36,354 nucleotides of DNA from contig DHMB01000020.1 of assembly GCA_002405565.1 (NCBI GenBank), forward strand, positions 8,241 to 44,594. The letters are read 5' to 3'. Under the pieces are notes generated by a model, which did not search any database, was not told where the DNA came from, and saw nothing but the letters and a program-made list of their open reading frames with translations. This document shows positions 665-24,200 of the stretch, piece after piece. Both the position numbers and the translations under genes were made by a program. Numbering within the stretch: the first letter of the stretch is position 1; every line of letters begins with the position of its first letter. The DNA is from Clostridiales bacterium UBA4653 (GTDB lineage: Bacteria; Bacillota; Clostridia; Oscillospirales; CAG-272).

Positions 665-699
665 ACCGAAAAAGAATATATCCGGAGAGGAGAAGACCA

Positions 700-1323: not shown

Positions 1324-1427
1324 CGCGGAAATGTCGGAAAATCGTTGAAAAATCAAAATAAAAAAAGGATTTCCGCAAAATATTTCGTATCTTACAATCA
1401 AATAATAAAAGACAGGAGATTTTTGCC

Positions 1428-2423: not shown

Positions 2424-2446
2424 AACAGAAAAGGAGGTAACCCGAT

Positions 2447-4204: not shown

Positions 4205-4245
4205 AGCAAAAAGAAAAGAATACATAAATTTCGGAGGGAAATTCA

Positions 4246-5613: not shown

Positions 5614-5642
5614 TAAATTTTTATTTGCATAATACACAACAT

Positions 5643-5712
5643 TCTGCCGCGCAGTTTGAACTTTGTGCATATTACGATTGTGCATAAGGCAAAATACGCG
5701 GCAGACTTTTTT
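5643..5712 (+). terminator. Candidate long-loop terminator after rpoD
   Basis: tctgccgcg (5643-5651) pairs perfectly with cgcggcaga (5697-5705) and is followed by c+TTTTTT (5707-5712). The 45-nt loop is atypically long and contains a ttgtgcata direct repeat (5663-5671, 5678-5686). Confidence 0.35.
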
Positions 5713-5787
5713 GTGAATAATGACAATAAATCGGCAAATCGGGCTCAAAAACGGCGAAGGCTACGGGCGCTTAAATCAAATTATCAC

Positions 5788-5816
5788 TTGACACAATGGG
5801 CGTTTTGTAGTAATAT
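5788..5816 (+). promoter_or_regulatory. Sigma-A-type promoter candidate for the lipoprotein gene
   Basis: TTGACA (5788-5793), 17-nt spacer, TAATAT (5811-5816), about 80 nt upstream of ATG 5899. Confidence 0.45.
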
Positions 5817-5898
5817 TATTATATATCATTATAGCTTCGCGTATTGTTTATCGCAAAATTACCAGTAAGCAAGAAACTTTTTTCGGAGGAAAAATTCC

Positions 5899-9135: not shown

Positions 9136-9150
9136 TCCGGACTCAAAGCA

Positions 9151-9178
9151 GGAGCCGACCGAAAGGTCGGCTCTTTTT
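9151..9178 (+). terminator. Rho-independent terminator of the lipoprotein gene
   Basis: Stem gagccgacc (9151-9159), GAAA tetraloop, stem ggtcggctc (9164-9172), then TTTTT (9173-9177). Begins 16 nt after the stop codon. Confidence 0.8.
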
Positions 9179-9266
9179 GTTTTGCGACTTGATACCGTAC
9201 AAAATGCGACGGACGTTTTTCGGCTGTTTTGAAAGTTGAAACGGCAAGCGTCGGCGACATCCTGCG

Positions 9267-9295
9267 GAATATTTTCCGTCAGCCGATAATATAAA
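9267..9295 (+). promoter_or_regulatory. Weak sigma-E-like promoter candidate upstream of spoIIIAA
   Basis: GAATATT (9267-9273) fits the -35 as I recall it for B. subtilis sigma-E (kmATATT). After a 14-nt spacer, AATATAAA matches CATACAhT only 5/8. The 12-nt motif cggaatattttc occurs twice (9265-9276, 9305-9316). Confidence 0.2.
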
Positions 9296-9348: not shown

Positions 9349-10218
9349 GTGATAAAATATCTGCCGCGGGAAAAGGCGGAGGCGATTGCGTCATTCTGCG
9401 CCGAAAGGCTTGACGGCGGGAAAAACGTAACGGAGATAAGACTTCGCGCCGGTGCGCCGCTCTCGCTTACCGTCGGCATGAAAAATGTTATCCTGCCGCG
9501 GACGGTGGTGTCCGTATCAAGCGAGAGGGAGCTCGGCGAAACGCTCGGCAGACTCTGCGAGGACTCTGTCCACACATACAGCGAAACGATAAAAGAGGGC
9601 TATGTCACCCTCTCCGGCGGATACAGAATAGGTGTTTGCGGCAGTGCAAGAAGCGAGGGGGAAAAGGTGAAAGGGGTTTACCTTATAAGCTCGCTCTGCA
9701 TAAGAATTCCGCACGCGATAACAGGCGTTTGCGGCGAGCTTCTCGACGAGATAAAAACAGAAAAAGGCTTGCTCTCCGCCTTGATTTATTCGCCTCCCGG
9801 AGAGGGGAAAACGACTCTCCTCCGCGACGCGGCGAGAAGACTTTCGACAGGGGCGGACGCGATAAGGGTGTGCATTATAGACACAAGGGGAGAAATATAT
9901 CTTTCAGAGCTTTTTTCGGGCTGTATTGCCGACGTTATGTACGGTTATCCGCGGGCAAAGGGAATGGAGATTGCGGCGAGGACGATGTCGGCGCAGCTTA
10001 TCGTTTGCGATGAGATAGGCACGGCGGATGAGGCGGAGGCGATAATCTCCGTTTCAAACACTGGCGTGCCGCTTCTTGCCTCGGCGCACGGGAGCTCGTT
10101 TGATGATCTCATGCGTCGGCCGCCGCTCAAAAAGCTCGCGCAGGCGGGCGTTTTCGGTAAATATATCGGCATAAGGCGGAATGGCGGAGGATATGCGCTC
10201 TCCGTCGACGAAGTATGA
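9349..10218 (+). CDS. spoIIIAA: Stage III sporulation protein AA (ATPase)
   Basis: 289 aa. Walker A SPPGEGKTTLLRD and Walker B-like LIVCDEIG. First gene of an 8-gene array with the spoIIIA size and TM pattern. GTG start, with no in-frame alternative before the upstream stop. The SD is poorly placed, so the start is uncertain. Confidence 0.88.
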   Translation: MIKYLPREKAEAIASFCAERLDGGKNVTEIRLRAGAPLSLTVGMKNVILPRTVVSVSSERELGETLGRLCEDSVHTYSETIKEGYVTLSGGYRIGVCGSARSEGEKVKGVYLISSLCIRIPHAITGVCGELLDEIKTEKGLLSALIYSPPGEGKTTLLRDAARRLSTGADAIRVCIIDTRGEIYLSELFSGCIADVMYGYPRAKGMEIAARTMSAQLIVCDEIGTADEAEAIISVSNTGVPLLASAHGSSFDDLMRRPPLKKLAQAGVFGKYIGIRRNGGGYALSVDEV

Positions 10219-10718
10219 GACTTATCGGGGCGGCGCTTGTGTTTTTTGCCGCTTTTTCATGCGGACTTTTTGCGGGAAAATGCGAGCAGAAAAGGATCGA
10301 CGAGGCGGAAGCCTTTCTTTCGCTTTTTGAATATATAAAAAATCAGGTCGGCTATTTTCTGACGCCGACAAAGCTGATATACCGCGGATTTGAAAACAAA
10401 GTGCTTTCCGATATAGGCTTTCTTGAAAAGCTGAGGTCTCATGAAAACGACGAGATATATTTTGACGCATGGGGCGAGGCTTTCCGCGCATGCGAGGGCT
10501 CTCTTCACCTTTCGGCGGAGGAGGAAAAGATAATTCTCGGCTTCGGCGAATGTATCGGAAAGAGCGACGGAAATATGCAGATAAAGAGCTTTGATTATTA
10601 TATCGGGCTTTTGTCATCGGAGCTGGAAAAGGCACGGACGCTTGTTGCAAAAAACAAAAAGGTTTACAGAACGATCGGCTTTGCCATCGGCGCGATGGCT
10701 GCCATACTGCTTATTTGA
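10215..10718 (+). CDS. spoIIIAB: Stage III sporulation protein AB
   Basis: 167 aa. N-terminal TM helix, a helical soluble domain and a C-terminal TM helix. ATGA overlap with the spoIIIAA stop. Second position in the operon. Confidence 0.82.
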   Translation: MRLIGAALVFFAAFSCGLFAGKCEQKRIDEAEAFLSLFEYIKNQVGYFLTPTKLIYRGFENKVLSDIGFLEKLRSHENDEIYFDAWGEAFRACEGSLHLSAEEEKIILGFGECIGKSDGNMQIKSFDYYIGLLSSELEKARTLVAKNKKVYRTIGFAIGAMAAILLI

Positions 10719-10728
10719 GGGTGATAAA

Positions 10729-10923
10729 ATGGAAACTGCGCTTATTCTTAAAGTCGCGGGGATAGGAATTCTCGTTGCCGTATCAAGCATGGTGCTGAGC
10801 AAATCGGGGCGGGACGAACAGGCAATGCTTGTATCCCTTGCGGGGGTTGTTATAGTGCTTCTGATAATAGTCGGCGAAATCGGAGGGCTTTTCGACACGG
10901 TGAAAAGCATTTTCGGGCTGTGA
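10729..10923 (+). CDS. spoIIIAC: Stage III sporulation protein AC
   Basis: 64-aa two-TM protein METALILKVAGIGILVAVSSMVLSKSGRDEQAMLVSLAGVVIVLL..., which is the conserved SpoIIIAC pattern. ATG at 10729 follows GAGGGTGA. The track's longer ORF (10591) would overlap spoIIIAB by 128 nt. Confidence 0.9.
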   Translation: METALILKVAGIGILVAVSSMVLSKSGRDEQAMLVSLAGVVIVLLIIVGEIGGLFDTVKSIFGL

Positions 10924-11306
10924 ACATCATAAAGCTGTGCGGAGTTGCGATAATTTCTGTCGTTGCGGCGGTGATCGTAAAAAGAATAAAGCCGGACTTC
11001 GGGACGTTTGTTTCGATTATGGCGGCTGTCGTCATTTTCGGGGCGGCTTTGTCGACTTTGTCGCCCGTGACTTCTTATATCGGCGAGCTTTCCGACGCGG
11101 CAGGCTTCGGAATATACACGGAGACTATTATAAAATCGCTTGCGGTGACGTTGCTTGCGCAGACGACGGGCGATATATGCCGCGACTGCGGCGAGAGTGC
11201 CGTCGCGGGAAAGATTGAATTTGCCGCAAAATGCGCGATAATGCTGTTGAGTCTGCCCGTGATAAAAAACATACTTTCTCTATCGGGGGCGGTGCTTGAA
11301 AAGTGA
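10920..11306 (+). CDS. spoIIIAD: Stage III sporulation protein AD
   Basis: 128-aa polytopic membrane protein. GTGA start/stop overlap with spoIIIAC. Fourth position in the operon. Confidence 0.85.
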   Translation: MNIIKLCGVAIISVVAAVIVKRIKPDFGTFVSIMAAVVIFGAALSTLSPVTSYIGELSDAAGFGIYTETIIKSLAVTLLAQTTGDICRDCGESAVAGKIEFAAKCAIMLLSLPVIKNILSLSGAVLEK

Positions 11307-12397
11307 AGAAAACTGCTTGCGTGGCGATTGTGCTCGTGCTTATCCTGCTTTTTTCCGTCACTGCGATGGGGGCGGAGGCGGACGATGTGCTCTCCGCCGT
11401 GCCCGACGGTCTGAAGGACTATCTTCCGGATGTCGGGGAGGATGTGACGCCGTCCGGAATTGCCTCGTCATTTGACGCCGGATGGCTTCTGAAAACCGTA
11501 ATTTCAATCATCTCCGATGTGGCGCCGGGAGCGTTTTCATCCGTTCTGACCGTGCTCGGAATACTGATCGTTGCGGCGGTGCTTGCCGTCGTGCGCGACA
11601 GCATTTCGGGAGAGGCGGTCAAAAATATGCTGACGTACGTCTGCGCGCTCTGCATATGCGGCGCGACATACGGGCTTCTCGGCTCGCTTATGGATATGGT
11701 TTCGGAATTTACGGTGCGCATGGGAGAATTCATGCGCTATGTTTTGCCGACGCTCGGCGTGCTCATGGCGAGCGAAGGGTCGATAACGATGTCGGGCGTC
11801 GGCTGCGCCGTGGTCTACGGCGCTGTCGCGCTTCTTGAAAAGATAACGGAGGGCTTTGTCTTTCCGATGATAAAGATATGCTTCTGCATATCTGTCGGCG
11901 CTGTGGCGCTGGGAAATGACAGCCTTTCCGGCATAGCGCAGACGGTTAAAAAGCTGGTGACGAGCGTCATGGCGCTTGTGATGATAGCGTTTTCCTGCGT
12001 GCTGACGTTTCAGAGCATAGTTGCCAAAAGCGCGGACTCCGTGCTTTTCAAGGGCGTGAAATTTGCGCTTTCAAATATAATTCCGGTTGTCGGAAGTGCC
12101 GTCGGAGACGCGGTGACAACGGTGAAGGGCAGTATTTCCGTTATAAAATCATCCGTCGGGACGATTGGTGCAATAGCGGTGCTTCTGATATTTCTTTTCC
12201 CATTCTGCACGCTCTGGGCAAACAAGGTTGCATTTGAATTGCTTTCATCCGTTGCGGGACTTCTGGGACTTCCGCGCGAGGGAAAGTTTCTCTCCGAGGT
12301 GTCGTCCGTTACGGGGCTGATGATGGCGGTGATAAGCTCGTCAACGGTGTTTTTTATAGTTGCAATGGCGATATTCGCGTCATCGGGGGCGGGTTGA
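11303..12397 (+). CDS. spoIIIAE: Stage III sporulation protein AE
   Basis: 364 aa. Signal peptide (MKKTACVAIVLVLILLFSVTAMGA) followed by multiple TM helices. GTGA overlap with the spoIIIAD stop. Confidence 0.85.
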   Translation: MKKTACVAIVLVLILLFSVTAMGAEADDVLSAVPDGLKDYLPDVGEDVTPSGIASSFDAGWLLKTVISIISDVAPGAFSSVLTVLGILIVAAVLAVVRDSISGEAVKNMLTYVCALCICGATYGLLGSLMDMVSEFTVRMGEFMRYVLPTLGVLMASEGSITMSGVGCAVVYGAVALLEKITEGFVFPMIKICFCISVGAVALGNDSLSGIAQTVKKLVTSVMALVMIAFSCVLTFQSIVAKSADSVLFKGVKFALSNIIPVVGSAVGDAVTTVKGSISVIKSSVGTIGAIAVLLIFLFPFCTLWANKVAFELLSSVAGLLGLPREGKFLSEVSSVTGLMMAVISSSTVFFIVAMAIFASSGAG

Positions 12398-12398
12398 T

Positions 12399-12890
12399 AT
12401 GGAAAAACTGAGCGGCTTTGTGTTTTCCTTGCTGACGGTCTGTGTGATTGCCGGAATTGCAACCGGACTTTCGCCGGAAGGCACGATGAAAAGATATATA
12501 AAATACATAGTTTCGCTTTGCGTGCTGGCGGCGATAATAACGCCTGTGATAAGCATTTTTTCGTCATTACCGGCGCAGGGGGAGGAGCTTTCCGAGCTTT
12601 TCGGCGACCACGGAGAGGCGACGGGCGACTCGGAAGAGAAGCTCATAGAGGCGCAGAAAAAAGCGGTCGAGCAGGCGATAACGGATGTTGTTTCAAATAA
12701 ATTCGGCATTGACAAAGGCAAGCTGGCGGTTGAGATAAAAATAGACGCGACGAACAAATCCGCAATCGAGATACGGGAAATAAACATCGTCTGCTGCGTC
12801 GTCTGCCGGACGGAGGAAATACGGAATTATATAGAGGAAATGTTTTACGGTACGGCAAGGGTTACTGTTACGGAGGCTTTGGATGGGTGA
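12399..12890 (+). CDS. spoIIIAF: Stage III sporulation protein AF
   Basis: 163 aa from ATG 12399, which lies 1 nt after the spoIIIAE stop. Two N-terminal TM helices and a soluble C-terminal domain. The track's start at 12360 lies inside spoIIIAE. Confidence 0.75.
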   Translation: MEKLSGFVFSLLTVCVIAGIATGLSPEGTMKRYIKYIVSLCVLAAIITPVISIFSSLPAQGEELSELFGDHGEATGDSEEKLIEAQKKAVEQAITDVVSNKFGIDKGKLAVEIKIDATNKSAIEIREINIVCCVVCRTEEIRNYIEEMFYGTARVTVTEALDG

Positions 12891-13395
12891 GCTGAAAATG
12901 AAGAAAATGTTTTCCGGTGCGGACGGAAAAAAGGTCATTATTCTTGTTGCCATCGGCATTTTGGGGGTTCTGCTTATGCTTTTGGGGTCATTTTCCGGAG
13001 GGAAAAAGAGCAAAACGCAGAATTTGTCGACGGGCTTTGATGAAACCGAGGCATATATTTCCGAGACGGAGAATAAGATTAGAAACATAACGGAGCAGAT
13101 AACGGGTTCGGGAAAGACCTGTGTTGTGGTAACGGTGAAATCGGGGGTCGAGTCCGTTTACGCATATGACGAAAAGACAGCGTCCGGCTCGGAGAGCAAA
13201 AGTCATATAACCGTCAAAAACAGTAGCGGCGACGGAGAACCGGTGCTTGTCAAGCGGATATATCCGGAGATTGCGGGCGTATCGATCGTATGCGAAGGTG
13301 GCGACAGCGCGGAAATCCGCGCAAAGCTGATAAACGCCGTTTCCACAGCGCTCGGACTTTCAAGCAACCGTATCTGCATAGTGGGAACAAAATAA
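12883..13395 (+). CDS. spoIIIAG: Stage III sporulation protein AG
   Basis: 170 aa. N-terminal TM helix. The C-terminal block IAGVSIVCEGGDSAEIRAKLINAVSTALGLSSNRICIV matches the conserved SpoIIIAG ring-domain terminus. GGAGG lies 7 nt upstream of the ATG. Confidence 0.82.
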   Translation: MGELKMKKMFSGADGKKVIILVAIGILGVLLMLLGSFSGGKKSKTQNLSTGFDETEAYISETENKIRNITEQITGSGKTCVVVTVKSGVESVYAYDEKTASGSESKSHITVKNSSGDGEPVLVKRIYPEIAGVSIVCEGGDSAEIRAKLINAVSTALGLSSNRICIVGTK

Positions 13396-13417
13396 TTATT
13401 TTACAGGAGAAAGTATT

Positions 13418-14080
13418 ATGAGAAACGCAGAGAGAATGGCACTTAAAATGGGTCAGGCAGAGCAGATTGCGGGCGACGGAACGCTCGATCTTCCGGAGAG
13501 CGAGGAAAAATCGTTCAAATTCAAAAGTATTTTCACCGCGGACGGAGCAAAGAAGGGACTTAAAAAGATAGGTCTCAGAAACATTGTCATTGCGCTTGCA
13601 ATCGTCCTTATCGGCGCGGCGGTTTACGTCAACTGGCAGCTCTTCGGCGGATCAAAAGTTGAAGAGCCGGCAAAAGATCCGAACGCCGAGCAGACCGGTA
13701 ACGTAACGCCCGGATCAGACCAGAGCGGCAAGACAGACGATTATTTCGCTTCCGCGGAAATCTCCAGAAAGCAGGCAAGAGACGAGGCTATCGAGGTGCT
13801 TCAGGGTGTTGTTGACGACAAGGGCTCTCTTGACGCGGCAAAAGAGCAGGCGCTCAAAGACATCAGCGCAATGGCGGCAAACATAGAGCTTGAGGCAAAC
13901 ATTGAGTCGCTTATAAAGGCGAAGGGCTTTGAAGAATGTGTAACCGTTATAAACGGTGACAAGGCGACGGTCGTTGTAAAGAGCGAAGGACTTAAGCCCA
14001 ATCAGCTTTCGCAGATACTCGAAATCGTTTATCTTCAGGCAGGAGTTCTTCCCGCAAACGTTACGATAACCGAGAAATAA
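13418..14080 (+). CDS. spoIIIAH: Stage III sporulation protein AH
   Basis: 220 aa. TM helix (IVIALAIVLIGAAVYV), a disordered linker, and a C-terminal YscJ/FliF-like region (ATVVVKSEGL...ILEIVYLQAGVLPANVTI). Last gene of the operon. Confidence 0.78.
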   Translation: MRNAERMALKMGQAEQIAGDGTLDLPESEEKSFKFKSIFTADGAKKGLKKIGLRNIVIALAIVLIGAAVYVNWQLFGGSKVEEPAKDPNAEQTGNVTPGSDQSGKTDDYFASAEISRKQARDEAIEVLQGVVDDKGSLDAAKEQALKDISAMAANIELEANIESLIKAKGFEECVTVINGDKATVVVKSEGLKPNQLSQILEIVYLQAGVLPANVTITEK

Positions 14081-14096
14081 TTTACTTGTACCAAAA

Positions 14097-14128
14097 ACAA
14101 AAAAGGCACGCTGCGGCGTGCTTTTTTG
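14097..14128 (+). terminator. Rho-independent (bidirectional-looking) terminator of the spoIIIA operon
   Basis: A-run, stem gcacgc (14106-14111), loop tgcg, stem gcgtgc (14116-14121), then TTTTTT (14122-14127). The stem starts 26 nt after the spoIIIAH stop. Confidence 0.8.
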
Positions 14129-14377
14129 TTAAAAAGAATAAGTAAACCAAATATTTTCAATCAGAACGTCTAATTTCCTTGTAATCAAAATGCAAATAAG
14201 AAATATAAGGGAAAAGCGCGGTTATATTTGAAGCCGGACTGGTGCGATAAGTGGCAAAATATGCGTCAAAAAACGATTTTTAATGCCAATATAATGCAAA
14301 AACACTTATCGAACAACATATTTTAATGAAAATGAATATAAATATAAATATGGAGTTAATAAAAATGTTACAATCCA

Positions 14378-14406
14378 TTGACAAATAAAGGATTTAAGAG
14401 TATAAT
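14378..14406 (+). promoter_or_regulatory. Consensus sigma-A promoter heading the TIR/vWA/tubulin-like cluster
   Basis: Perfect TTGACA (14378-14383), exactly 17-nt spacer, perfect TATAAT (14401-14406). Lies in a visibly AT-rich spacer, ~200 nt upstream of ATG 14604. Confidence 0.6.
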
Positions 14407-14482
14407 GAAAAAAATGACGAATTATGTCTGTGCGATATCTTTTCCGCGGTTTCTTTACTAAAATGCGCAAGACTTCCAGGTT

Positions 14483-14540
14483 AAAAACGGTTGCTCCGTG
14501 CGCATTCCCCCCGGAACTGTGCACAGAGTAACCGTTTTTT
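14483..14540 (+). promoter_or_regulatory. Terminator-like leader hairpin (possible attenuator or small-RNA terminator)
   Basis: 5' arm aaaaacggttgctccgtgcgca (14483-14504) pairs with 3' arm tgtgcacagagtaaccgttttt (14518-14539): 22 positions, with 2 G-U pairs and 1 C-A mismatch. 13-nt loop, then a T6 run (14535-14540). Possible competing 8-bp pairing of aatgcgca (14462-14469) with tgcgcatt (14499-14506). Confidence 0.5.
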
Positions 14541-14603
14541 GCATATTGAGGGATTCGGAAATGGGTTTGGCTGAATTCCAAAATTAAATCGGAGGGTAGG
14601 AAA

Positions 14604-16250
14604 ATGACAGAAAAGACAAAGACTAACGAACCAAAACAAAACGAAACATGGGATAACGTCCAGACAAAGTTTGAGGCGTACACCGGTAACGAGCCGTATC
14701 TCTTCGTGAGCTATTCTCACAGGGATACCGCCGCTGTGTATCCCATACTTGACGCGCTCCATGACTGTAAATACCGCATATGGTATGACGAATCGTGTGA
14801 AAACGGAAACGATTTCCGCGATGAGCTGCGTCACCGCATAGAAAATGCGGAGGCAGTGTTGCTTTTCGTATCGAAAAGCTCAATGACATCTCCCTTCTGC
14901 GGCATGGAAATCATCGTCGCAAGAGAGAACAACAAGCGCCTTTATCCGATATATCTTGATGATGCGGATGTTCCGCCGGCTTTCGCAATACTTCTTTCAA
15001 ACACACAGCACAGCATGGCAGGCAATATGGACAAGCTCATCAAAGCGCTTTTGCGTGATCTGCCTGCGGTTGCAATGGATCGTCTCACAATCGGAGACGG
15101 AGAGCTCAAAAAGTGCGAAGATAACGGCAATAGCATAACCGTTGACGAAGGGGTACGCGTAATATGCGCCGACGCCTTCAAGGATCGCAAAGCTCTGCAC
15201 ACGATCATCCTGCCGCAGACGCTTGAAACAATCGGGGAAGAGAGCTTCCGCGGGTGCAGCAATCTTGAAGCGATGGACGTGCCCGAAAAGACGTCCAGAA
15301 TAGGTTCGAGCGCCTTCCGCGACTGTATAAGCATGAAGAGCCTGAAAGTTCGCAATGGGTACATAAAGATAGGCGAAAGAGCATTTGAAAACTGCGCCTC
15401 ACTTGAAAGCGTTTCGCTTCCCGACGGACTTACGGAAATTTACGGTGGCGTGTTCAACAGCTGTAAAAGTCTTGTACACATAGACCTGCCGAAAAATCTT
15501 ACGATACTCGGCGAGAGCGCATTTTCGGATTGCGTCTGCCTTGAAAAGATGGAAGTGCCGGAGGCGGTTGTCAAGATAGACGACCTTGCCTTCAACGGGT
15601 GCACTAATCTGACGAAGATAGTCCTTCACGAGGGACTCCGCAAGATCGGGAAGGGCGCTTTCAAGAACTGCCGTAATCTTAAGCAGATAGAGCTTCCGAT
15701 CTCGCTTTCCAGCATAGGCGACGCACCGTTCCGCGGATGTGAGTCGATAAAGTCGATTCACGTCGACCCGAAAAACCGTTATTACAAATCCGAGCCGAAC
15801 AAGCGTGAGGGCAGCGACCACGTTCTTTTCAACAAGAACAAATCGGTGATAGTTGCATATCCGGCGAGCAGCCGCGAGGTTCAGTATGACATACCGGACA
15901 GCGTTACGGTCATCAGCGACTGGGCGTTCAGCGAATGTAAAAAGCTCAACCGTATCACGATACCGGACAGCGTATCCGAGATAGGTGAAGGCGCGTTCTG
16001 CAACTGCGTGCTTCTCGATGAGGTTGAAATCCCGGACAGCGTTGAAAAAATCGACGACTGCGCCTTCCGCGGGTGCGCAAGCCTTGAAAAGGTAGTCATT
16101 CCGTCATCCGTAAAGGATCTCGGCTGGGGACTTTTCGACGGTTGCGAGGGCACCGTTACGGTATACTGCGACGAAGGCTCCGCGATACACGATTATTGCC
16201 GCAGATGCGGAATAAAGAGCGCGCCGATATCCGAAAAGGAATCGAACTGA
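14604..16250 (+). CDS. Cytoplasmic TIR-domain protein fused to BspA-type leucine-rich repeats
   Basis: 548 aa with no signal peptide. TIR_2-like N-terminus: YLFVSYSHRDTAAVYPILDAL..YRIWYDE...AEAVLLFVSKSSMTSPFCGMEIIVA, with putative catalytic Glu102 at 14907-14909. From ~15140 there are roughly ten ~23-aa repeats of the form IGxxAFxxCxxLxxIxIPxxV. Strong SD GGAGGG 7 nt upstream. Confidence 0.85.
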   Translation: MTEKTKTNEPKQNETWDNVQTKFEAYTGNEPYLFVSYSHRDTAAVYPILDALHDCKYRIWYDESCENGNDFRDELRHRIENAEAVLLFVSKSSMTSPFCGMEIIVARENNKRLYPIYLDDADVPPAFAILLSNTQHSMAGNMDKLIKALLRDLPAVAMDRLTIGDGELKKCEDNGNSITVDEGVRVICADAFKDRKALHTIILPQTLETIGEESFRGCSNLEAMDVPEKTSRIGSSAFRDCISMKSLKVRNGYIKIGERAFENCASLESVSLPDGLTEIYGGVFNSCKSLVHIDLPKNLTILGESAFSDCVCLEKMEVPEAVVKIDDLAFNGCTNLTKIVLHEGLRKIGKGAFKNCRNLKQIELPISLSSIGDAPFRGCESIKSIHVDPKNRYYKSEPNKREGSDHVLFNKNKSVIVAYPASSREVQYDIPDSVTVISDWAFSECKKLNRITIPDSVSEIGEGAFCNCVLLDEVEIPDSVEKIDDCAFRGCASLEKVVIPSSVKDLGWGLFDGCEGTVTVYCDEGSAIHDYCRRCGIKSAPISEKESN

Positions 16251-16342: not shown

Positions 16343-17866
16343 ATGACATCATGGTTTGGTAATCAATGGGGAAAATTTCTCTCCTCAATGCCCGAAAATA
16401 TCGGCGTGTTCGCTGTTATTTTCTTTCTGCTGTTTATTGCGGTAAGCGCGCTGTTTTCGCTGACAAAGCGGTTCATGCAGAACATTGCCGCTCTCGCGGC
16501 GGCGATAGTTTCGGCGTTCGTATCGTTTTTGCTCGTCGACTCGATTTACGGAATTCTTCTCAAACGCGAAGGAATTCAGGCGGCGATAAACGAACTGCTT
16601 GAGAAATTTCCGGAGCTGGGCGCGTCCTCTGAGGGAGTCGTTGCGGTTTCAAAATTCGTTGTCAGTCTTGTTGCCGTTCCCGCGCTGTTCCTCATAGTTT
16701 ACGGAATTTTCTCGCTTGTAACGTCGATAATATTCCGCAAGTATCAGAAGGAAGGCGTAAGCGGCGGGAAAAAGGCGGAAAGCAACATTTCGTCGACTGT
16801 GAAGATAATCATCGGCGTGCTTTCCGGCGTTGCGGCGTTTGTGGCATATTTCTTCCCGTCACATTCGTTTGTCGACCTTATGACGCTGCCGCCCATCCTT
16901 ATAACGGCGTTTGCGGTTGTCAAGGGAATAATGTTCTTCTTCGGAAAACACCGTCCCAAGGCAGACTGGGCGAGAAAGACCGCGGGAATCGTTTCCGGCG
17001 CGGTCACGGGGCTTATCCTCTTTGTAATGCTGATGTTCCCGTTCCTCTCTCTCGCAAACATCATAGGCGAAGGCGTCTCGGCAATACCGGAAGAGGCGCT
17101 CGCGTGCTATGAAAACGCAGAGGTTGACGAAGACCCGGATGACGTCGGCGTAATGACGACAATATTCAGCTACACGGCGAAGGCAAAGGTCTATTCGGAC
17201 AGTTACAGCAAAACCTTTGTTTCAAAGATATATCCCAAATGCGGGGTGGCGGGACTGCACAATAAGGTCGCTCCCGAAAAACAGGCGGAATCGATACTCA
17301 AAGCAACCGTTGCGCTCGGTTCGTATTATTATTGCGAAGAGCAGGGCGCCGAGTTTGCCAATGCCGATGAACGTCTCGGCGAATATATCGACGACGTTGT
17401 AGGCGATAAAAACTTAAACGATGTGTTGCAGGCGCTTTTCTGCGACACAATTTCAACCACATTTGCAGAGGAGAGCGAAAGAGACGCTTTCCGCGAAGAG
17501 ATATCCGCGACGGCAAAACTCTCTGGGCTTGAAAATCTTGATGAGCAGGCGCGTGCGGAAGAGAGCGTCAGACTTTCAAGAGTATATCAGGTTCTCTGCA
17601 AAATGCTTGTTTCAAAGATGAACAAAAGAGCGGACGGCTTTACCCCCGATGACCTCATACTCATCGGAAATATGCTCGACGCAATGAACGACACCTATTC
17701 CTTCGGCGATACGCCGGCGCCTATTCTCGAAAAGCTCCATGAGGACAAGAGTATAGGCAGGTTCATAGATCCGCAGGAAGCAATCGGAAATGTCAGCGCA
17801 GGAGAATACAGTTACACACTTTATATGGAAATTATAAATGAGAGAATTGCCGACGCCGCAAGGTAA
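16343..17866 (+). CDS. Polytopic membrane protein (about 6-7 TM helices) with an acidic helical C-terminal domain; unknown function
   Basis: 507 aa. Hydrophobic helices run through roughly aa 20-245, then a soluble Asp/Glu-rich region. GAGGTGA SD. No motif I recognise. Confidence 0.75.
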   Translation: MTSWFGNQWGKFLSSMPENIGVFAVIFFLLFIAVSALFSLTKRFMQNIAALAAAIVSAFVSFLLVDSIYGILLKREGIQAAINELLEKFPELGASSEGVVAVSKFVVSLVAVPALFLIVYGIFSLVTSIIFRKYQKEGVSGGKKAESNISSTVKIIIGVLSGVAAFVAYFFPSHSFVDLMTLPPILITAFAVVKGIMFFFGKHRPKADWARKTAGIVSGAVTGLILFVMLMFPFLSLANIIGEGVSAIPEEALACYENAEVDEDPDDVGVMTTIFSYTAKAKVYSDSYSKTFVSKIYPKCGVAGLHNKVAPEKQAESILKATVALGSYYYCEEQGAEFANADERLGEYIDDVVGDKNLNDVLQALFCDTISTTFAEESERDAFREEISATAKLSGLENLDEQARAEESVRLSRVYQVLCKMLVSKMNKRADGFTPDDLILIGNMLDAMNDTYSFGDTPAPILEKLHEDKSIGRFIDPQEAIGNVSAGEYSYTLYMEIINERIADAAR

Positions 17867-17902: not shown

Positions 17903-20900
17903 GTGTTTTCAAAAAGGATTATCCGCATTCTGGCGCTGTGTATTGCCGCTGTATTTCTGATGGCATGCATACCGATGTCAGCCGCGCAGGCGAGCGAGGC
18001 GGAGGCGTCATACAAACGGAAGATTATTTCCGTTGTATATGACAACTCCGGCTCAATGGAGGTGCAGAGCAGAATAAATTATGCGCAGTATTCTCTTCAG
18101 ATACTGCTTTCAATGCTCGGCAGCGGCGACATTCTGACGATATCTCCGATGAACCCCGTCTCGGACGAAGAGCCGACGATTGAGGTCAAGCTCCAGGACG
18201 GAGACTGCAGCAATAAGATAAAGGAGATTGTCAACCGCAGGTCTATTACAAAGGCAAACGGCGGCACGCCGTTCGGAGCGGTTGAAAGAGCTGTCGAAGA
18301 GCTTGAAAAGCGCGGACTGAAAAAGGTTGAGGACGCGGGCGATGTTGAGCAGAGCGACGAATTCTGGCTCGTCATCCTGACGGACGGCTCGTTTGACTCG
18401 CTGGCGTCGCAGAGCAAGCTCGAGGACGCGATCGGCAAGCTGATCGGCAAATACAGCTCGCTCAGAACAATCTATCTCGGAATAGGCAGCAGCGCCGTGG
18501 ATCTTTCCTCCGGCAAGCTTGCGACTTCCGCGTCATTTACCGCACTGAAAGCGGGCGAAAAGACTTCGTTTGTTGAAAAAATGCAGACGATATGCAACAT
18601 AATGTCCGGAAGATACGCGCTCCAGCAGGATTCGTATACTATAAAAGGAAACAAGGTCACTCTTGACTTTGACAGAGCCGATTTCCCGTTCCGCACGGTT
18701 TCCGTCCTGCTTCAGGACTGCGCCGCGGAGCTCAGGGATATAAAATATAACGGAAAGAGCATTGAGCCGTCGCAGTTCAGCGTTCTGTCCGGTAACCCGA
18801 AGGTCGGTATGGAGGACGGATACTCCGCCGTTATAAAGGGAACGCCGTATTTCTCGTCCGGAAAGATGGAGCTTGTGTTCTCGTCCGACATAAAGGCTGA
18901 GAATCTGACGGTCACGGGCGAGCCCGCGCTTACTATTCAGCCGTATTTCGAGTATCTGAAAGACGGGAAATGGGAAAGAACGGACATCCGTTATATAAAC
19001 AGTAATCTTACAAAAAACGACTCGATAAGAGTCGGATATGAAATTTATGAGCAGGCAAACGGCAAAAAGCTCAATCTTGCCTCCATCTTCGGTGACGTTG
19101 TGTCATACGTTTCGTATGCCGGCAACCGCTACGAAATAGAAGAGAAGATACCGCTTGTCGTCGGTACGAACGAAATCGGCATATCGGTAAGCGTTATGGG
19201 CGGAAGCTACTCGATGACATCATCTGCGATGTGTATCATAAGCGATAACCCGATGGCGTACCGCATTGAAGCGACGACAGAGGAAAAGCGTGAAGCTTCG
19301 TCAAACAAAATGCTTGTGAAGTTCACGGTCTACTCCGATGACAAGCCGCTCTCCAAAAAACAGCTTGAGGAATACACTCTCAAGCTCGGCGCTGTGAGAG
19401 AAAACGGCACCGACCTTCCGATGAGTTTTGAAATCAATTCATCCGGTATTGTTGTTGCCGAGGTCGACCTGAAGGACGTTCCGTCCGGCGAAAAATGCAC
19501 TGTTTCGCTGAGAGTGACCTCTCCCTTGAACGTCTCACGCGAGAAAAAGGTGGAATTCAGCGTCAAGGCGAATATATCGAAGATCGACATAGGCCCCTCC
19601 GGTGATCTTTCATCAAAATCGTTCTCGCTTACACAGTATGAACTGCTCAGCAACAAAAACGGAATGGAATTCGTCCTCATGGCGAACGGTCAGGCTTATG
19701 ACTTCACAGCCTCCGGCGACATTTCTTATTCCGTTACGCTTGATGGCAGAGATATTACAAAATATACAAAAGCGGAAGGTAACAGACTGATATTCACCCC
19801 GACGCTTGAAAGCCTCGGAGACGAGGCGGGCAAGCCCGGAAAAAAGACGGTTGAGCTGACGGTTTCGTCAGTACTGAACCCCAAGGTTTCCGGAAAGGCA
19901 ACGGCGACTCTCGAGCTTCTGAAGTCCGAAATGACGGTGACCGTCAAAGCGGACGAGAGCCCGTTGAACATAACGCCGTATCAGCTCAAAAACAACGGGC
20001 GCGGATTTGAGTTTGTCATAAAGATTGACGGAAAGACTGTCGCTTTTGATGACGGAATCATTGATTGGCAGCTGACTCTCGGCGGAACGGATATAGGAAA
20101 GTACGCTACCGTAAGCGGCGGCGGACTCAGCTTTATCCCGACGGAGGAGAGCATGGGCGGAAGTACCTCTCTCGGCGGCAGAACCGCTTCCGTGAAGGCA
20201 TGGCTTAAGGAAATCCCGGATATATCGGCGTCGTGCGACGCTTCATGGAACATCGTCGACAGTCTTTGGGAGATCGTGATATTGCCGGGCACATCAGAGG
20301 TTGACCGCTTTGCGATAGAAGACAGCGGAGCTTCTTTCAAAGTAAAACTTATGAGAGACAAGGTCTGGCTCAGCGCCGAAGAGGCGCAGGCGCTCTTTGA
20401 ATCAGGCGCGCTCAGATTTGAATGCGGAATGATCGATAAGAACTTCCTGCTTCCTGTTGGCAAGGAGATAACCTTTGAAAGCGAAGACGGAGTCGGAATA
20501 ATAACATACAGCGTCACGCGCGATCAGATAAATCCCTTTGCAAGCTTTATGGCAATGCTTATTCCGAACGGCACGCGGACAGTAAACATTTTCTGCAACA
20601 CCGCAGAAAACAGCACAGACCTCTTCTTTGTGAAGAGCGCGGCATGGTCATACATATGGAGAATACTTGTTATTCTGCTGATAATTTATCTCATAGTATG
20701 GTTTGTGCTTGCGTTCAAGGTCAAGAGCTTCCCTTCGGGAAGAATTGTGACCGTTATAAGGAGCGGAGCGTATGCGAGATTTTCCAGCAAAGACCTGAAC
20801 AAGACGTTTATCGATAAATACTTGTGGCATCTTCAGCGCCTGCTCCCCTGGAAGCTGGCAACAAATCAGCCGGATCGTGACAAGGTCACATTCTCGTCCG

Positions 20901-21220
20901 GAATAACAACGAAGGGGTCGGCAAAATCAAGCGGAACCAAGGCGAAGCTGAAGATTAAAGGAAAGCCGCCGAAGAAGCTTTATAAGATATCGTTTGTAGG
21001 GCTTCCGACCGAAATTTATACGTACATGATGTCTTTCGGCAAACCTTCGATTGGCAAGGCGCCGGGGAAGATCAACGCAGACGATTTCTTCGGATGTGTT
21101 TCTCTTGAAGATGAGATAGAAAAATATCCCGATCTTTCAAGCGGAAAATATTATGCCGAAGTCGACGACAAAAAGGGAAAAGTAACAAAGGTTACTTATT
21201 ATATGAGAACAAATTTCTAA
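17903..21220 (+). CDS. Surface-exposed vWA-domain protein with Ig-like repeats, a single C-terminal TM anchor and a Lys-rich cytoplasmic tail
   Basis: 1105 aa. Signal peptide (...IPMSAAQA/SEA). Complete MIDAS: DNSGS (18041-18055), GGTPF, ILTDG. Beta-rich repeats include a clear ~100-aa tandem duplication (~19615-19920 vs ~19960-20220). TM helix WSYIWRILVILLIIYLIVWFVLAF (~20646-20717). ~165-aa tail includes KAKLKIKGKPPKK. GTG start. Confidence 0.85.
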   Translation: MFSKRIIRILALCIAAVFLMACIPMSAAQASEAEASYKRKIISVVYDNSGSMEVQSRINYAQYSLQILLSMLGSGDILTISPMNPVSDEEPTIEVKLQDGDCSNKIKEIVNRRSITKANGGTPFGAVERAVEELEKRGLKKVEDAGDVEQSDEFWLVILTDGSFDSLASQSKLEDAIGKLIGKYSSLRTIYLGIGSSAVDLSSGKLATSASFTALKAGEKTSFVEKMQTICNIMSGRYALQQDSYTIKGNKVTLDFDRADFPFRTVSVLLQDCAAELRDIKYNGKSIEPSQFSVLSGNPKVGMEDGYSAVIKGTPYFSSGKMELVFSSDIKAENLTVTGEPALTIQPYFEYLKDGKWERTDIRYINSNLTKNDSIRVGYEIYEQANGKKLNLASIFGDVVSYVSYAGNRYEIEEKIPLVVGTNEIGISVSVMGGSYSMTSSAMCIISDNPMAYRIEATTEEKREASSNKMLVKFTVYSDDKPLSKKQLEEYTLKLGAVRENGTDLPMSFEINSSGIVVAEVDLKDVPSGEKCTVSLRVTSPLNVSREKKVEFSVKANISKIDIGPSGDLSSKSFSLTQYELLSNKNGMEFVLMANGQAYDFTASGDISYSVTLDGRDITKYTKAEGNRLIFTPTLESLGDEAGKPGKKTVELTVSSVLNPKVSGKATATLELLKSEMTVTVKADESPLNITPYQLKNNGRGFEFVIKIDGKTVAFDDGIIDWQLTLGGTDIGKYATVSGGGLSFIPTEESMGGSTSLGGRTASVKAWLKEIPDISASCDASWNIVDSLWEIVILPGTSEVDRFAIEDSGASFKVKLMRDKVWLSAEEAQALFESGALRFECGMIDKNFLLPVGKEITFESEDGVGIITYSVTRDQINPFASFMAMLIPNGTRTVNIFCNTAENSTDLFFVKSAAWSYIWRILVILLIIYLIVWFVLAFKVKSFPSGRIVTVIRSGAYARFSSKDLNKTFIDKYLWHLQRLLPWKLATNQPDRDKVTFSSGITTKGSAKSSGTKAKLKIKGKPPKKLYKISFVGLPTEIYTYMMSFGKPSIGKAPGKINADDFFGCVSLEDEIEKYPDLSSGKYYAEVDDKKGKVTKVTYYMRTNF

Positions 21221-21248: not shown

Positions 21249-24200
21249 ATGAAAAACATTCTTCTCATCGGTGTCGGAGGCACCGGCAGCAACGCGGTTG
21301 ACATTCTTACTCAGAAGAGAAAAGAATTCGGAAACCAGACAGGCAACAGAATTACATCGATCGTGTTTGATACGGACGCCGGCAGCGTTGAAAATATTTC
21401 AGCGGCTACCATTATTCCCATGACGGACAATGCAAGCGTCGGCACCATCTGCGACAGAATAGGCACTTCGTACCTGCGCGAATGGTTCCCCTGCGACGAC
21501 ACATGGGTGGATTACAAGTCCGTCAGAGCGCAGGAAATGGTCAGAGGCGCATCGCAGTGGCGTAAGAAATCGTTCCTTGCATTCGTCAACCTTATGAATA
21601 AGCCTATGGCGCGCAACACCTTTATCAATGCGCTTGAATCAATGGTCGCAAACCCCGGCGCTTCATGCGAGGTATATGTCATTTCCTCAGTTGCAGGCGG
21701 AACGGGCTCCGGTTCATTTATACCGATCGCTCTTTATACCAAGAGATATCTTCGTAAGTGCCTCGGAAAGGATCCGATCGTAAACGCTATGATCGCCCTT
21801 CCCGATATATATGCCGACAGTCAGACCCCCGATAACAAGGTCAAGGTCTATGCAAACGCATATGCGATTCTTCGTGAGCTCAACGCCATAAACCTTGTTG
21901 CTCACAACTTCAATGACGACAACAAGACAGAAAAGAAGGCTCCTGTCAAATTCCGCATAGGTGATCCGAGAGAGCCCAACGTAGGCGTTCTGTTTGATTC
22001 GGAAGACGAGCAATACTGGACGCCTGAAGCCGCTCCGTTTACGCAGATATTTATACTCGACCGTATTCCCGGACTGAAATCCATCTCGGCGCACGATATG
22101 GTAATGGCTGACTCGCTTTATACTCTGATTTGTACGGATATCGGCGCGGCATTCGACAGCGAAGCGTCAAACCATGAGATTCTTCATTCGCAGAGCAACG
22201 GCAGCAACGCCATTTATGCAGGAATTTCCACATCACAGATACGTTTCCCCAGAGAGACGATTCTTGAATATCTCTCCCGCAGAAAAGCTCTCGGCGATTG
22301 CGAAAAGGAATGGATGGTTCTCCATCGCAAGGTCGAGGCGACGATTGCAGAGAAGATTCAGCAGGCAAAAGATAACAATGACAGATACGTTCTCAAGGAC
22401 GGCGGTTATGCAGAGCTCGTTTTGCAGTCGCTTGCAGACCTTGCCGAGAACGGAACAGGTATTCTTGTCTCCGATATGGTTGACCGCGGTACAGCGGTTG
22501 TTGAAGACGGAAAGAAGACCGACAAGTCAACCGAAGAAAAGTTCTTCGCAGAGCTCAAAAAGGAAATCGACAAGAGAGTTCTTTCGGATGAGAGATATTT
22601 CGAGGAAAACTGCGAGCGGCCTGCTCCTGAAAAGGCAAGTGCCAAAGAAGCTGTTGTCGAGAGCGCAGAAGCATGGAGAGAAGAAGGTCTCTTTGAGTAC
22701 TTTGCAGAATGTGTAAGACTTATCAAGAATTCTTCCACGAGCCTTGCGGAAGCTGTTCTTTCTCTTGACGAAAACCGCGGAATGGGACTTAACAAGTCGC
22801 TCTCTGTAATCGAAACGCTCCTTAAAAAGGATAATAAGTTCATTCACCCCGTTGCAGCAATGGTACAGCTTTGCAGACTGAAATGTCATCTCGCCGATTT
22901 CCTCAAGATAGGAAAGGGTGACTTCCAGTGGGAAGAAATCAAGAAGAGATCTGTTGATTCGCTTCCCGCATGGGCATTGGAACTTGACGATGATAGCGCA
23001 CCTGTTGACGACAAGAAGATTGTCAGCCGCAGTGCATATGCAAAATCGACAAGCGGCGTACAGAGATTCTCCGATCTCTGCGACGACAGTGAAACATATC
23101 TTTCAAAACATACCGATGCGCGTTGTGACCACGAGTGCGTTGAGGCAGACGTCAAAACGCTTTTCAAGAAAATACGCAAGAGAGCTGTTGATCAGTTCCA
23201 GTATGCCGTATTCAAGAAAATTTCCGATAACCTTGATATACTCATAGAAAAATACCGCAACTTCTTCTCCCGTTTCGACAAGGAAAGAGAAGAGCTTGAA
23301 GAAGAAACAAAGACTGTTCTCCGCAAGGACTGCGGCACGGTCGACAGCATTATAAACGTATATTCTTCAATTGCGGATAAGGAAGAAATCCTCAGAGACG
23401 TATTCAAGAACGCAGGCCCCGAGAGCGAAGCTCAGCTTGCCGAGACGGATGATATTGCCGGCAAGGGCGTATTCGCCACGGCGTACGGCGCTGCTGTTGC
23501 CGCAAGCAAACAGGACGAAACATGGAACGAGAAGGACTCCCGCGCATACCGTTCGCTCTTTACGAACATGGTTGCCGCTTACAGAGAGTATATCGCAAAA
23601 TCCGACGCGTACGCGAAGATCGCTTCGTTCAACGTTGTTCAGGCGATAGAATGTTCCTGCAAGGACAAAGATAAGCTCGAATCCGAATTCCGCACATGCT
23701 TCTCGACGGCTCAGGAGCTTGCAACTCCTTCTCTCCGTATAAATACGGGCGACGCATGCAGCGATCTTGTCAAACCTTCAAACGTCGTTGTATTCATGAT
23801 GTCGCTTGAAACAGGTAAATACATAAAGAAGAACGCCGACAAGCTCGGACTTCACCTGCCCGCAAATCAGAACAAGGAAAGCACGGTTATCCGTTCTTGC
23901 GTTGAGGAATTTGTCCGCCGCTATTCGGGCGATGACAGCGTTCGCGTTTCGATCGTTGAAAATATGCCCGATGACGTGCTCTACTGCACAGGCGAGATCA
24001 TGGACATCAGCCCTCTCCGCATTGCAAAGTTTGATGAATGCGGAACAGACAACATCTATTTCAGAAATTACAAGCAGGCGCTCTTCAATGCGAAGAGATT
24101 CGGCACGGATATGTGGAATCCTCACATCGGCAAGGACTTGCACCGTCGCGGCTACCTGCCCTATATGAACGAGGCTATGGAGGAAGAATGTGACGTCAAG

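Follow-up and report, generated by a model that had tools for sequence, protein, structure and literature searches.

This report concerns a gene in a 36,354-bp stretch of DNA (the window; contig DHMB01000020.1 of Clostridiales bacterium UBA4653). The gene runs from bp 14,604-16,250 on the plus strand and encodes a 548-amino-acid protein, TIR-LRR, in which a TIR_2 domain precedes leucine-rich repeats (LRR) of the LRR_5 type. We propose, with a confidence that is about evenly balanced, that TIR-LRR is a soluble cytoplasmic TIR enzyme-adaptor whose LRR would dock on a conserved, endogenous, membrane-associated partner. The start codon is an ATG, with a GGAGG Shine-Dalgarno sequence (bp 14,591-14,595) nine bases before it. 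An earlier note on this DNA, made from the sequence without database searches, had assigned both domains, and both matches lie far above the Pfam cut-offs: TIR_2 scores 67 bits at residues 34-127 (E = 2.7e-18; cut-off 28), and LRR_5 scores 273 bits (E = 3.2e-82; cut-off 27.7). The motifs listed there (FVSYSHRD, RIWYDE and LLFVSKSSMTSPFCGMEIIVA) were all found in the translation. A hydropathy scan of the whole protein agreed with the same note in finding no signal peptide, transmembrane (TM) helix or hydrophobic segment; the maximum Kyte-Doolittle mean over 19 residues was 1.04, compared with more than 2.3 in the membrane neighbours. The protein is therefore placed in the cytoplasm.

The structure of the protein was modelled with AlphaFold2 (AF2), using an alignment of 118 family sequences as input (mean pLDDT 93.5, pTM 0.82). 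The TIR domain, as delimited by Pfam TIR_2, by DSSP on the AF2 models and by Foldseek, covers about residues 29-155 (bp 14,688-15,068, plus strand). DSSP placed its elements at residues 33-36 (betaA), 39-54 (alphaA), 59-61 (betaB), 62-68 (BB loop) and 69-81 (alphaB), followed by 84-89 (betaC), 97-108 (alphaC), 112-117 (betaD), 125-132 (alphaD) and 142-152 (alphaE). This order is the canonical flavodoxin-like alternation of beta and alpha elements, from betaA-alphaA to betaE-alphaE. When residues 1-175 were modelled separately, the top 50 Foldseek matches were all TIR domains, including those of SARM1, SPARTA TIR-APAZ, BtpA, MyD88, Toll-like receptors (TLRs), plant TNL proteins and ThsB. Foldseek TM-scores against the SARM1, BtpA and MyD88 TIRs were 0.64-0.71, the highest (0.71) being that for SARM1, and comparison of the family profile with TIR domains of the Protein Data Bank gave sequence E-values of 3.5e-7 to 1e-3. 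The domain and Foldseek scores are far above chance, and the TIR fold that the earlier note had expected of a structural model was recovered.

The putative catalytic residue is Glu102 (codon GAA, bp 14,907-14,909, plus strand), at the start of helix alphaC. Alignment by sequence and by profile pairs it with the glutamate of AbTIR (WTNYE-L), SARM1 (WVHKE-I), AtTIR (WCLDE-L) and Cat1 (WCWDE-L), the placement being by these alignments and by position in the secondary structure rather than by superposition of side chains. The residues with which it aligns, such as SARM1 E642 and AbTIR E208, are known as the catalytic glutamates of those enzymes. Four residues before Glu102 stands an aromatic residue, which is F98 here and Y in other clades. 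Glu102 is invariant among 118 diverse homologues, as are R58, W60, D62, E66, G68, F71, F88, S90 and S96. The catalytic position that the earlier note had predicted for Glu102 thus agrees with the alignments, and the best reading is that the TIR domain carries a complete NADase-type active-site signature and is catalytically competent. Ligand-triggered cleavage of NAD+ by TIR-LRR would be a reasonable inference.

The first search returned more than 100 protein clusters with 75-96% identity, all of about 548 amino acids and all combining TIR_2 with LRR_5. An exhaustive search with the TIR domain only extended the family to relatives with as little as 40% identity that are collinear over their full length, the distant ones being P0152 (58%), P0261 (46%) and P0193 (40%). 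Seeded with P0193, the search gave 2,987 or more clusters (90% identity) with E ≤ 1e-50, including a large subgroup of 525-535 amino acids. Source records name solely uncultured gut Clostridia (Oscillospiraceae, Acutalibacteraceae, 'Christensenella sp. UBA1214', 'Eubacterium sp. UMGS660' and Ca. Scatosoma), from human, ruminant, sloth and termite guts. The database names are generic ('TIR domain-containing protein', 'leucine-rich repeat protein'); the domain pair as such is already in databases, uncharacterised. No family member was found by tblastn in 50,697 phage and 72,556 plasmid records, where the matches were LRR-only proteins with at most 36% identity and none covered the TIR domain. 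The closest TIR proteins without LRR are fused to TPR or FGE-sulfatase-like domains, or carry tandem TIRs.

The LRR part forms a BspA-type LRR_5 solenoid of about residues 176-520 (bp 15,129-16,163, plus strand), followed by a C-terminal cap helix, as judged from Pfam, the repeat register and Foldseek. It consists of 13 repeats of 23 amino acids in the register I-G-x-x-A-F-x-x-C-x-x-L-x-x-I-x-I-P, and the array is broken by one insert of about 43 amino acids (residues 394-436). Foldseek matched this part to BspA-type structures from bacteria of the gut and mouth (4gt6, E = 8.6e-16; 4fs7; PcpA, 4cp6; 4h09; TpLRR, 6mlx). The earlier note's description of repeats of about 23 residues (IGxxAFxxCxxLxxIxIP) is therefore accurate, and the LRR_5 and 4gt6 scores make them BspA-type. 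Three cysteines outside the repeat consensus are invariant in the 118 sequences (alignment A1): C171, in the motif KC.D(N/G)G of the linker between TIR and LRR, and two in the C-terminal cap, C522 and C532. They may bind a metal or make up a structural cluster. In addition, the allele of the same-species locus L002 (P0054; L002 bp 10,001-11,509) has 502 instead of 548 amino acids at 96% identity. The 46 missing residues correspond to precisely two LRR units of 23 residues, pointing to variation in repeat number.

Conservation was similar in the two parts of the protein overall (LRR 0.68-0.75, TIR core 0.72) and differed strongly between the faces of the solenoid. The exposed positions 3, 4, 7 and 8, in the I-G-x-x-A-F-x-x-C segment, had a conservation of 0.77-0.85, compared with 0.83 for the scaffold, and the residues on this flank face are repeat-specific (for example GERAFENC and YGGVFNSC). 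The invariant flank face includes, for instance, E258, R259, E262 and N263, and G281, G282, N285 and S286. The concave positions 14 and 16, on the main beta-strand that is the canonical ligand face, scored 0.37, equal to the unstructured N-terminal tail. Ratios of nonsynonymous to synonymous substitution (dN/dS), obtained by a simple Nei-Gojobori codon count pooled over 111 close and non-independent pairs, followed the same order: 0.06 for the LRR scaffold, 0.06 for the flank face (positions 3, 4, 7 and 8), 0.11 for the TIR core, 0.15 for the exposed positions 19, 20, 22 and 23, 0.23 for the concave positions 14 and 16 and 0.33 for the exposed positions 10, 11 and 13. All site classes are under purifying selection, which is relaxed at the concave side, and nothing points to an arms race. 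Diversifying selection on the concave face was considered and rejected, as values of 0.23-0.33 indicate relaxed and not positive selection. The LRR had been called sensor-like in the earlier note; it does not show the diversifying behaviour of a sensor, one exposed face being as constrained as the scaffold and every class being under purifying selection. That the flank face is as constrained as the scaffold points to a fixed binding partner on this face; an extra, lineage-specific ligand on the concave face is possible.

The gene neighbourhood supplies candidates for such a partner. We collected 75 family loci from species-representative genomes, protein-identity look-ups and a metagenome scan, and scored the neighbours by profiles; dereplication at 90% TIR-LRR identity left 40 clusters (40-97% identity). 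Most loci are contigs from metagenomes or metagenome-assembled genomes (MAGs) with longest-ORF or six-frame open reading frame (ORF) calls, and the dereplicated counts depend on flank length. A CitMHS/ArsB-type permease gene adjoined TIR-LRR on the same strand and within 150 bp in 26 of the 28 evaluable clusters. This permease matches Pfam CitMHS (5e-28) and is far under every NCBIfam equivalog cut-off; it has 10-12 TM helices and no Macro, nucleotide-binding or recognisable ligand-binding domain. Its gene lies 3' of TIR-LRR in most clades and 5' in L036, L038/39, L042 and L076. At the loci examined, the stop and start codons of the two genes overlap or are at most 20 nt apart. The pairwise identities of TIR-LRR and of the adjoining permease are correlated (r = 0.56, a value reached in 0 of 2000 permutations), a correlation that would also arise from shared phylogeny. 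The pair stands alone among housekeeping genes in L001, L005, L006, L016, L018, L038/39, L042, L081 and L083. Neighbours beyond the permease and the tubulin-like module described below were heterogeneous: the 111 same-strand ORFs within about 5-6.5 kb comprised 201 Pfam families, none of which was present in more than three of the ORFs, and the flanking genes were varied housekeeping genes.

The window itself contains no CitMHS-type permease. In the slot that this gene occupies in other lineages lies mem507 (bp 16,343-17,866, plus strand), encoding 507 amino acids with about 6-7 predicted N-terminal TM helices and a soluble C-terminus of about 265 amino acids. Mem507 had no Pfam, NCBIfam or PADLOC match. 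It is confined to the window clade (the window, L002, L003, L004, L043 and L044), where it always follows TIR-LRR by 75-84 nt. The possibility that mem507 is a diverged CitMHS protein was rejected: there was no signal from hidden Markov models (HMMs), and hhalign against the CitMHS profile gave a probability of 0.2%. Since the more distant clades all keep the permease, the situation is most simply explained by secondary replacement of the permease by mem507 in the window clade. A different set of partners was found in the P0193 clade (L035, L088 and L090; about 40% identity), in which a 1097-amino-acid Ser/Thr kinase-ankyrin-SH3 protein is encoded 5' of TIR-LRR and a 511-amino-acid DHH phosphoesterase 3' of it (L035 bp 178-6867). 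This kinase and DHH set would suit the turnover of a nucleotide signal. Phosphoesterase neighbours as general support for nucleotide signalling were rejected, because DHH occurred solely in this clade and Metallophos only once.

In the window, TIR-LRR and mem507 are followed by genes of a tubulin-like cluster. The gene p1105 (bp 17,903-21,220, plus strand) encodes a protein with a signal peptide, a von Willebrand factor A (vWA)-like region with a DxSxS metal ion-dependent adhesion site (MIDAS; VVYDNSGSM) and a C-terminal TM anchor. The vWA call combines the motif with a weak NCBIfam alignment (the vWA region of TIGR03788) and had no Pfam match; p1105 homologues adjoin tubulin-like genes in L008 and L015. 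Next are two tubulin-like genes, both on the plus strand. The product of tub1291 (bp 21,249-25,124) matches FtsZl1/Tubulin_2 (2.4e-33), has an intact GGTGSG signature and carries a C-terminal extension of about 900 amino acids. The product of tub1061 (bp 25,229-28,414; 1061 amino acids) matches Tubulin_2 just above the cut-off (2.6e-6; 27.4 bits against 27) and, by phmmer, tub1291 (1.8e-24). It lacks the GGTGSG signature, with SDATGGE at the aligned position, and may be an inactive partner of tub1291.

The gene p680 (bp 28,408-30,450, plus strand) encodes two TM helices at about residues 488-546; in topology and position it resembles c3, one of the protein families, c1 to c4, that we distinguished among the neighbours (c1 being the CitMHS-type permease). 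That p680 is a diverged c3 was rejected, as neither HMM searches nor hhalign gave a signal. Directly after its stop codon starts, with ATG, a giant ORF (bp 30,451-36,354, plus strand), of which the window holds the 5' part (at least 1968 amino acids, with a TM N-terminus). It was missing from the ORF list because it runs past the end of the window. The giant ORF is a c4 homologue (c4 profile 7.6e-13; jackhmmer recruits c4 members), and its residues 1807-1906 match Transglut_core weakly (3.4e-4), compared with 1.8e-9 in the L036 homologue. Minus-strand ORFs at bp 30,553-32,544 and 34,819-35,697 are probably shadow frames of it.

A search by tblastn had suggested that the tubulin linkage is limited to the window clade. 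This was rejected, as profile and jackhmmer searches found diverged tubulin-like, c3 and c4 genes beside many orthologues; a metagenome scan seeded with a three-sequence tubulin-like alignment gave no matches. Of the 15 clusters in which each flank of TIR-LRR was 9 kb or longer, 8 had a tubulin-like/vWA/c3/c4 module within 10 kb of the gene, as did 7 others for which less flanking sequence was available. The module has at least four gene orders. In the window clade the order is TIR-LRR, mem507, vWA, tubulin, tubulin, p680, c4. L009 and L011 have tubulin, c3, c4, (x), c2, TIR-LRR, permease, and L012, L014 and L019 are alike, with the contig ending before the tubulin gene. In L052-L063 and L086 the order is tubulin, c3, c4, TIR-LRR, permease, the tubulin gene being visible in those loci with sufficient upstream flank. 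L008 has c2, TIR-LRR, permease, vWA, tubulin, c3, c4, and in L015 the orientation is divergent. The locus of the 46%-identical orthologue encodes, in order, a Tubulin_2 protein, proteins of 817 and 1416 amino acids (the latter with a transglutaminase core, 1.8e-9), CitMHS, TIR-LRR, a second TIR protein and, further on, another Tubulin_2 protein. In L037, TIR-LRR is followed, between two Tubulin_2 genes, by a gene (bp 2359-5655, plus strand) for a protein of 1098 amino acids that has TIR_2 at its N-terminus and an FGE-sulfatase-like region; from this second TIR protein, TIR modules seem to recur in tubulin-like clusters.

The linkage with the tubulin module is ancient yet facultative. The earlier note had TIR-LRR at the head of the cluster, which holds insofar as the gene heads a co-directional array with two Tubulin_2 genes and the linkage recurs in distant relatives; the tubulin cluster is not a constant partner, as it was present in about half of the well-flanked loci. 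Even within the species it varies. In L003 and L043 (about 95-96% nucleotide identity), similarity to the window stops at bp 19,210, inside the vWA gene. Past this point their ORF continues as a 786-amino-acid hybrid with a c2-like C-terminus (L003 bp 13,279-15,657; L043 bp 13,300-15,660), followed by unrelated genes, and the tubulin, p680 and giant genes are missing from both of these independent assemblies. We interpret this as presence/absence polymorphism of the tubulin cluster; a MAG chimera is less probable.

In the mechanism that we propose, the TIR domain would be joined rigidly to the BspA-type solenoid, and the invariant LRR face would dock the protein on a conserved endogenous membrane-associated partner: the co-translated permease in most lineages, mem507 in the window clade and the tubulin-like/vWA complex where it is present. 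Either a change in the state of this partner or a ligand bound to the concave face, which is less constrained, would then cause the TIR domains to gather. Self-association forms the active site in other TIR enzymes; here it would create a composite site in which Glu102 would cleave NAD+, with NAD+ depletion or an ADP-ribose-derived signal as the output. The pattern of conservation rather favours a role built into the cell over that of a fast-evolving immune sensor. A more specific version, in which TIR-LRR would be a vertically inherited, non-immune, NAD+-linked cytoplasmic signalling subunit of a membrane or envelope machine made up of a permease, FtsZl1 tubulin-like GTPases, an extracellular vWA protein and a giant transglutaminase-like membrane protein, is tentative, and we hold it to be possible rather than probable.

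Several observations weigh against docking on a built-in cellular partner. We infer the docking partner from gene adjacency only, and for the window, which lacks the usual permease and has the non-homologous mem507 instead, this argument transfers by position only. The P0193 clade has neither the permease nor the tubulin module. The concave face is the least conserved part of TIR-LRR and leaves room for an external ligand. Strain variability as seen for the tubulin cluster is typical of accessory or defence loci, and TPR, FGE-sulfatase and tandem-TIR fusions such as those of the nearest TIRs are usually read as conflict systems. The main rival is a new, self-contained abortive-infection pair in which the concave LRR face would sense a phage or invader protein, the TIR domain would deplete NAD+ or make a nucleotide signal, and the membrane protein (permease or mem507) would be a membrane-collapsing effector, comparable to type II Thoeris. 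The domain fusions of the nearest TIRs, the faster evolution of the concave LRR positions than of the rest of TIR-LRR and the variation of the linked tubulin cluster among strains would all suit it. As a matter of general knowledge, the characterised bacterial TIRs with this glutamate act in defence (Thoeris, SPARTA, TIR-STING, TIR-SAVED and Cat1). There were also weak ThsB-type and SAVED_TIR matches in PADLOC and NCBIfam, and a few neighbours bear ResIII or N6_Mtase domains. Firmicute neighbourhoods with tubulin and vWA genes have, moreover, been read as conflict systems (PMC7159879). However, dN/dS is far below 1 in every site class, and the family is collinear, conserved over deep divergence, set in housekeeping surroundings and not found on phages or plasmids. 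No partner fits any PADLOC model, effector domains that would sense a nucleotide, ThsA-like or other, are lacking, and the permease has no recognisable ligand-binding domain. We consider a defence pair possible, less probable than the docking model and the most serious competitor.

Two other explanations are weaker still. TIR-LRR could be a non-enzymatic scaffold, in which TIR-TIR and LRR contacts would organise the membrane and tubulin-like complex without NAD+ chemistry. Animal TLR and adaptor TIRs are generally known to act in this way, the model also matches the TIRs of MyD88 and TLRs, and the gene is embedded among those for large structural and membrane proteins. We nevertheless regard a scaffold as improbable, because invariance of the glutamate, of the aromatic residue at -4 and of the AA- and BB-loop motifs in 118 sequences is hard to explain without catalysis, and the best sequence and structure matches are to the NADase TIRs of SARM1, AbTIR, Cat1 and SPARTA. 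Export, with the LRR binding the host and the TIR disturbing host TLR signalling or NAD+ in the manner of the Tcp/Btp proteins of pathogens, would accord with the gut-associated organisms, with the BtpA TIR among the structural matches and with BspA-type LRRs (4gt6, 4fs7, PcpA, TpLRR) being typical of proteins on the surface of bacteria from gut and mouth. It is very improbable: signal peptide, TM helix, anchor and secretion-system genes are all missing, the gene overlaps or abuts the permease gene, and the same partners recur in bacteria of termite, ruminant, sloth and human guts, which indicates a role inside the cell.

The window is chromosomal. It contains genes for a GTPase, dnaG and sigA, a gene for a secreted protein of 1078 amino acids, spoIIIAA-AH and, after a 524-bp spacer, the co-directional array that begins with TIR-LRR. 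The 1078-amino-acid ORF (bp 5899-9135, plus strand), in the interval between sigA and spoIIIAA, has an N-terminal signal-like segment and is 98% conserved in L002 and L003; it had no Pfam, NCBIfam or PADLOC match. In L002, the entire spoIIIAA-AH operon is inverted (L002 bp 4551-9282 compared with window bp 9349-14,080), with a breakpoint at a bidirectional terminator hairpin, GCACGCTGCGGCGTGC (window bp 14,106-14,121). Despite this inversion the region upstream of TIR-LRR is unchanged in L002. It includes a sigma-70-type promoter-like site (bp 14,378-14,406, plus strand; TTGACA-17 nt-TATAAT), about 200 nt before the start codon. This candidate matches the consensus at 12 of 12 positions, is the only such match in 17 kb and is kept in the same-species loci L002 and L003. 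About 75 nt after it, the 5' leader contains a long, near-perfect hairpin followed by a T-run (bp 14,483-14,539, plus strand), which resembles an intrinsic terminator. The leader has a minimum free energy of -60.2 kcal/mol (z = -2.9), and the hairpin is also present in the centroid structure. The combination of promoter-like site and hairpin is conserved solely in same-species loci. The hairpin may be attenuator- or riboswitch-like, or may end a separate small RNA of about 130 nt; the 200-nt leader had no Rfam match to a riboswitch or other known RNA.

The current picture of bacterial TIR enzymes is, almost without exception, that of factors for virulence or against phages. TIR-LRR keeps every catalytic hallmark and yet behaves as a conserved component, with purifying selection, housekeeping surroundings and a fixed permease neighbour. 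Should it be immune, the pair would be an uncatalogued defence system with an unusual transporter-like effector. Should it be non-immune, TIR/NAD+ signalling would reach normal bacterial cell biology and this would, if true, be its first housekeeping role in bacteria. The organisms that carry it are uncultured Clostridia, abundant in the guts of humans and animals. In addition, the link to FtsZl1/vWA clusters would give an assayable entry point (an NADase read-out and the E102A mutant) into a cytoskeletal-like system that has been without an assigned function since 2010.

Compared with the NADase TIRs (AbTIR, BtTIR and ThsB) and SARM1, TIR-LRR is alike in its fold, the alphaC glutamate, the aromatic residue at -4 and the SYS..D and WYD loops, and differs in having no SAM/ARM, Argonaute, STING or SAVED module. 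We know of no characterised TIR enzyme with a BspA-type LRR as its C-terminal module. With type II Thoeris and other pairs of a TIR and a membrane effector it shares the two-gene arrangement of a TIR and an integral membrane protein; however, the partner of TIR-LRR (permease or mem507) lacks a Macro or nucleotide-binding domain, conservation is strong and there is no defence-island context. Matches to Thoeris profiles stayed below threshold or were weak (ThsB_TIR 20.7 bits against a cut-off of 21.2; NCBIfam ThcB4 20 against 220; PADLOC ThsB E = 1e-5 or weaker), and no ThsA-like neighbour (SIR2, Macro/TM-SLOG) was present in the 75 family loci. In PADLOC, TIR-LRR had only weak TIR-level matches (ThsB, SAVED_TIR). 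Mem507, p1105, the tubulins, p680, c1-c4 and the DHH protein had no match in PADLOC-DB v2 beyond generic TIR and kinase-domain matches.

The likeness to plant TIR-NB-LRR proteins and to Toll-like receptors consists in the combination of TIR and LRR in one chain, with the TIR N-terminal as in plant TNLs. Unlike plant TNLs, TIR-LRR has no NB-ARC/STAND NTPase (the linker of 45 residues between TIR and LRR contains no P-loop, Walker A motif or Pfam NTPase), its repeats are of the 23-residue BspA/LRR_5 type and not of the plant or typical type, and it is under purifying selection. Unlike TLRs, it has no TM helix, its LRR is not extracellular and its TIR is N-terminal and not C-terminal. Because it has no NTPase module, no TM helix and an N-terminal TIR, it is neither NLR- nor TLR-like. 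Of the TLR/NLR parallel drawn in the earlier note, the loose logic of a repeat domain plus a TIR stands and the architecture does not. With BspA-type surface proteins (F. prausnitzii 4gt6, B. ovatus 4fs7, PcpA 4cp6 and TpLRR 6mlx), TIR-LRR shares the repeat type, the solenoid and the insert in the middle of the array (Foldseek E = 1e-15 to 1e-7). Secretion or surface anchoring characterises those proteins; TIR-LRR bears an enzyme domain and lacks an export signal.

For the tubulin-like cluster, two published systems are relevant. In Firmicute GAP1-N2/DO-GTPase tubulin systems, neighbourhoods with tubulin and vWA genes were interpreted as conflict systems (Kaur et al. 2020, PMC7159879). The window is alike in its two tubulin paralogues with long extensions and its membrane-anchored vWA protein, and differs in having one vWA gene with no YtkA fusion detected. 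Pfam and NCBIfam gave no match to DO-GTPase, GAP1 or FNIII parts in the window, dedicated remote-homology profiles not being used. Walker A is lacking in mem507, p1105, the tubulins and p680, and the giant ORF has only a lysine-rich match (AKKKRGKT). The other system is the vWA/FtsZl1 operon, in which FtsZl1 stands beside a vWA protein and lineage-specific membrane proteins (Makarova & Koonin 2010, PMC2875224). In the text of that paper, TIR and leucine-rich occur 0 times, and neither a CitMHS-type permease nor a giant protein of the transglutaminase-like kind is mentioned. The bacterial fusion of TIR with BspA-type LRR, the TIR/CitMHS pair and TIRs in FtsZl1/tubulin-like systems were not found described in the searchable open-access literature, which also yielded nothing specific on FtsZl1 from later years; the pairing of TIR-LRR with a permease of the ion-transporter superfamily and its recurrent embedding among FtsZl1, vWA and transglutaminase genes thus appear undescribed. 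The OmpA, kinase and GTPase genes of vWA/FtsZl1 operons were not seen in the array of the window. The window fits these operons in having a Tubulin_2/FtsZl1 gene beside genes for membrane proteins and for a vWA protein with a signal peptide and an intact MIDAS.

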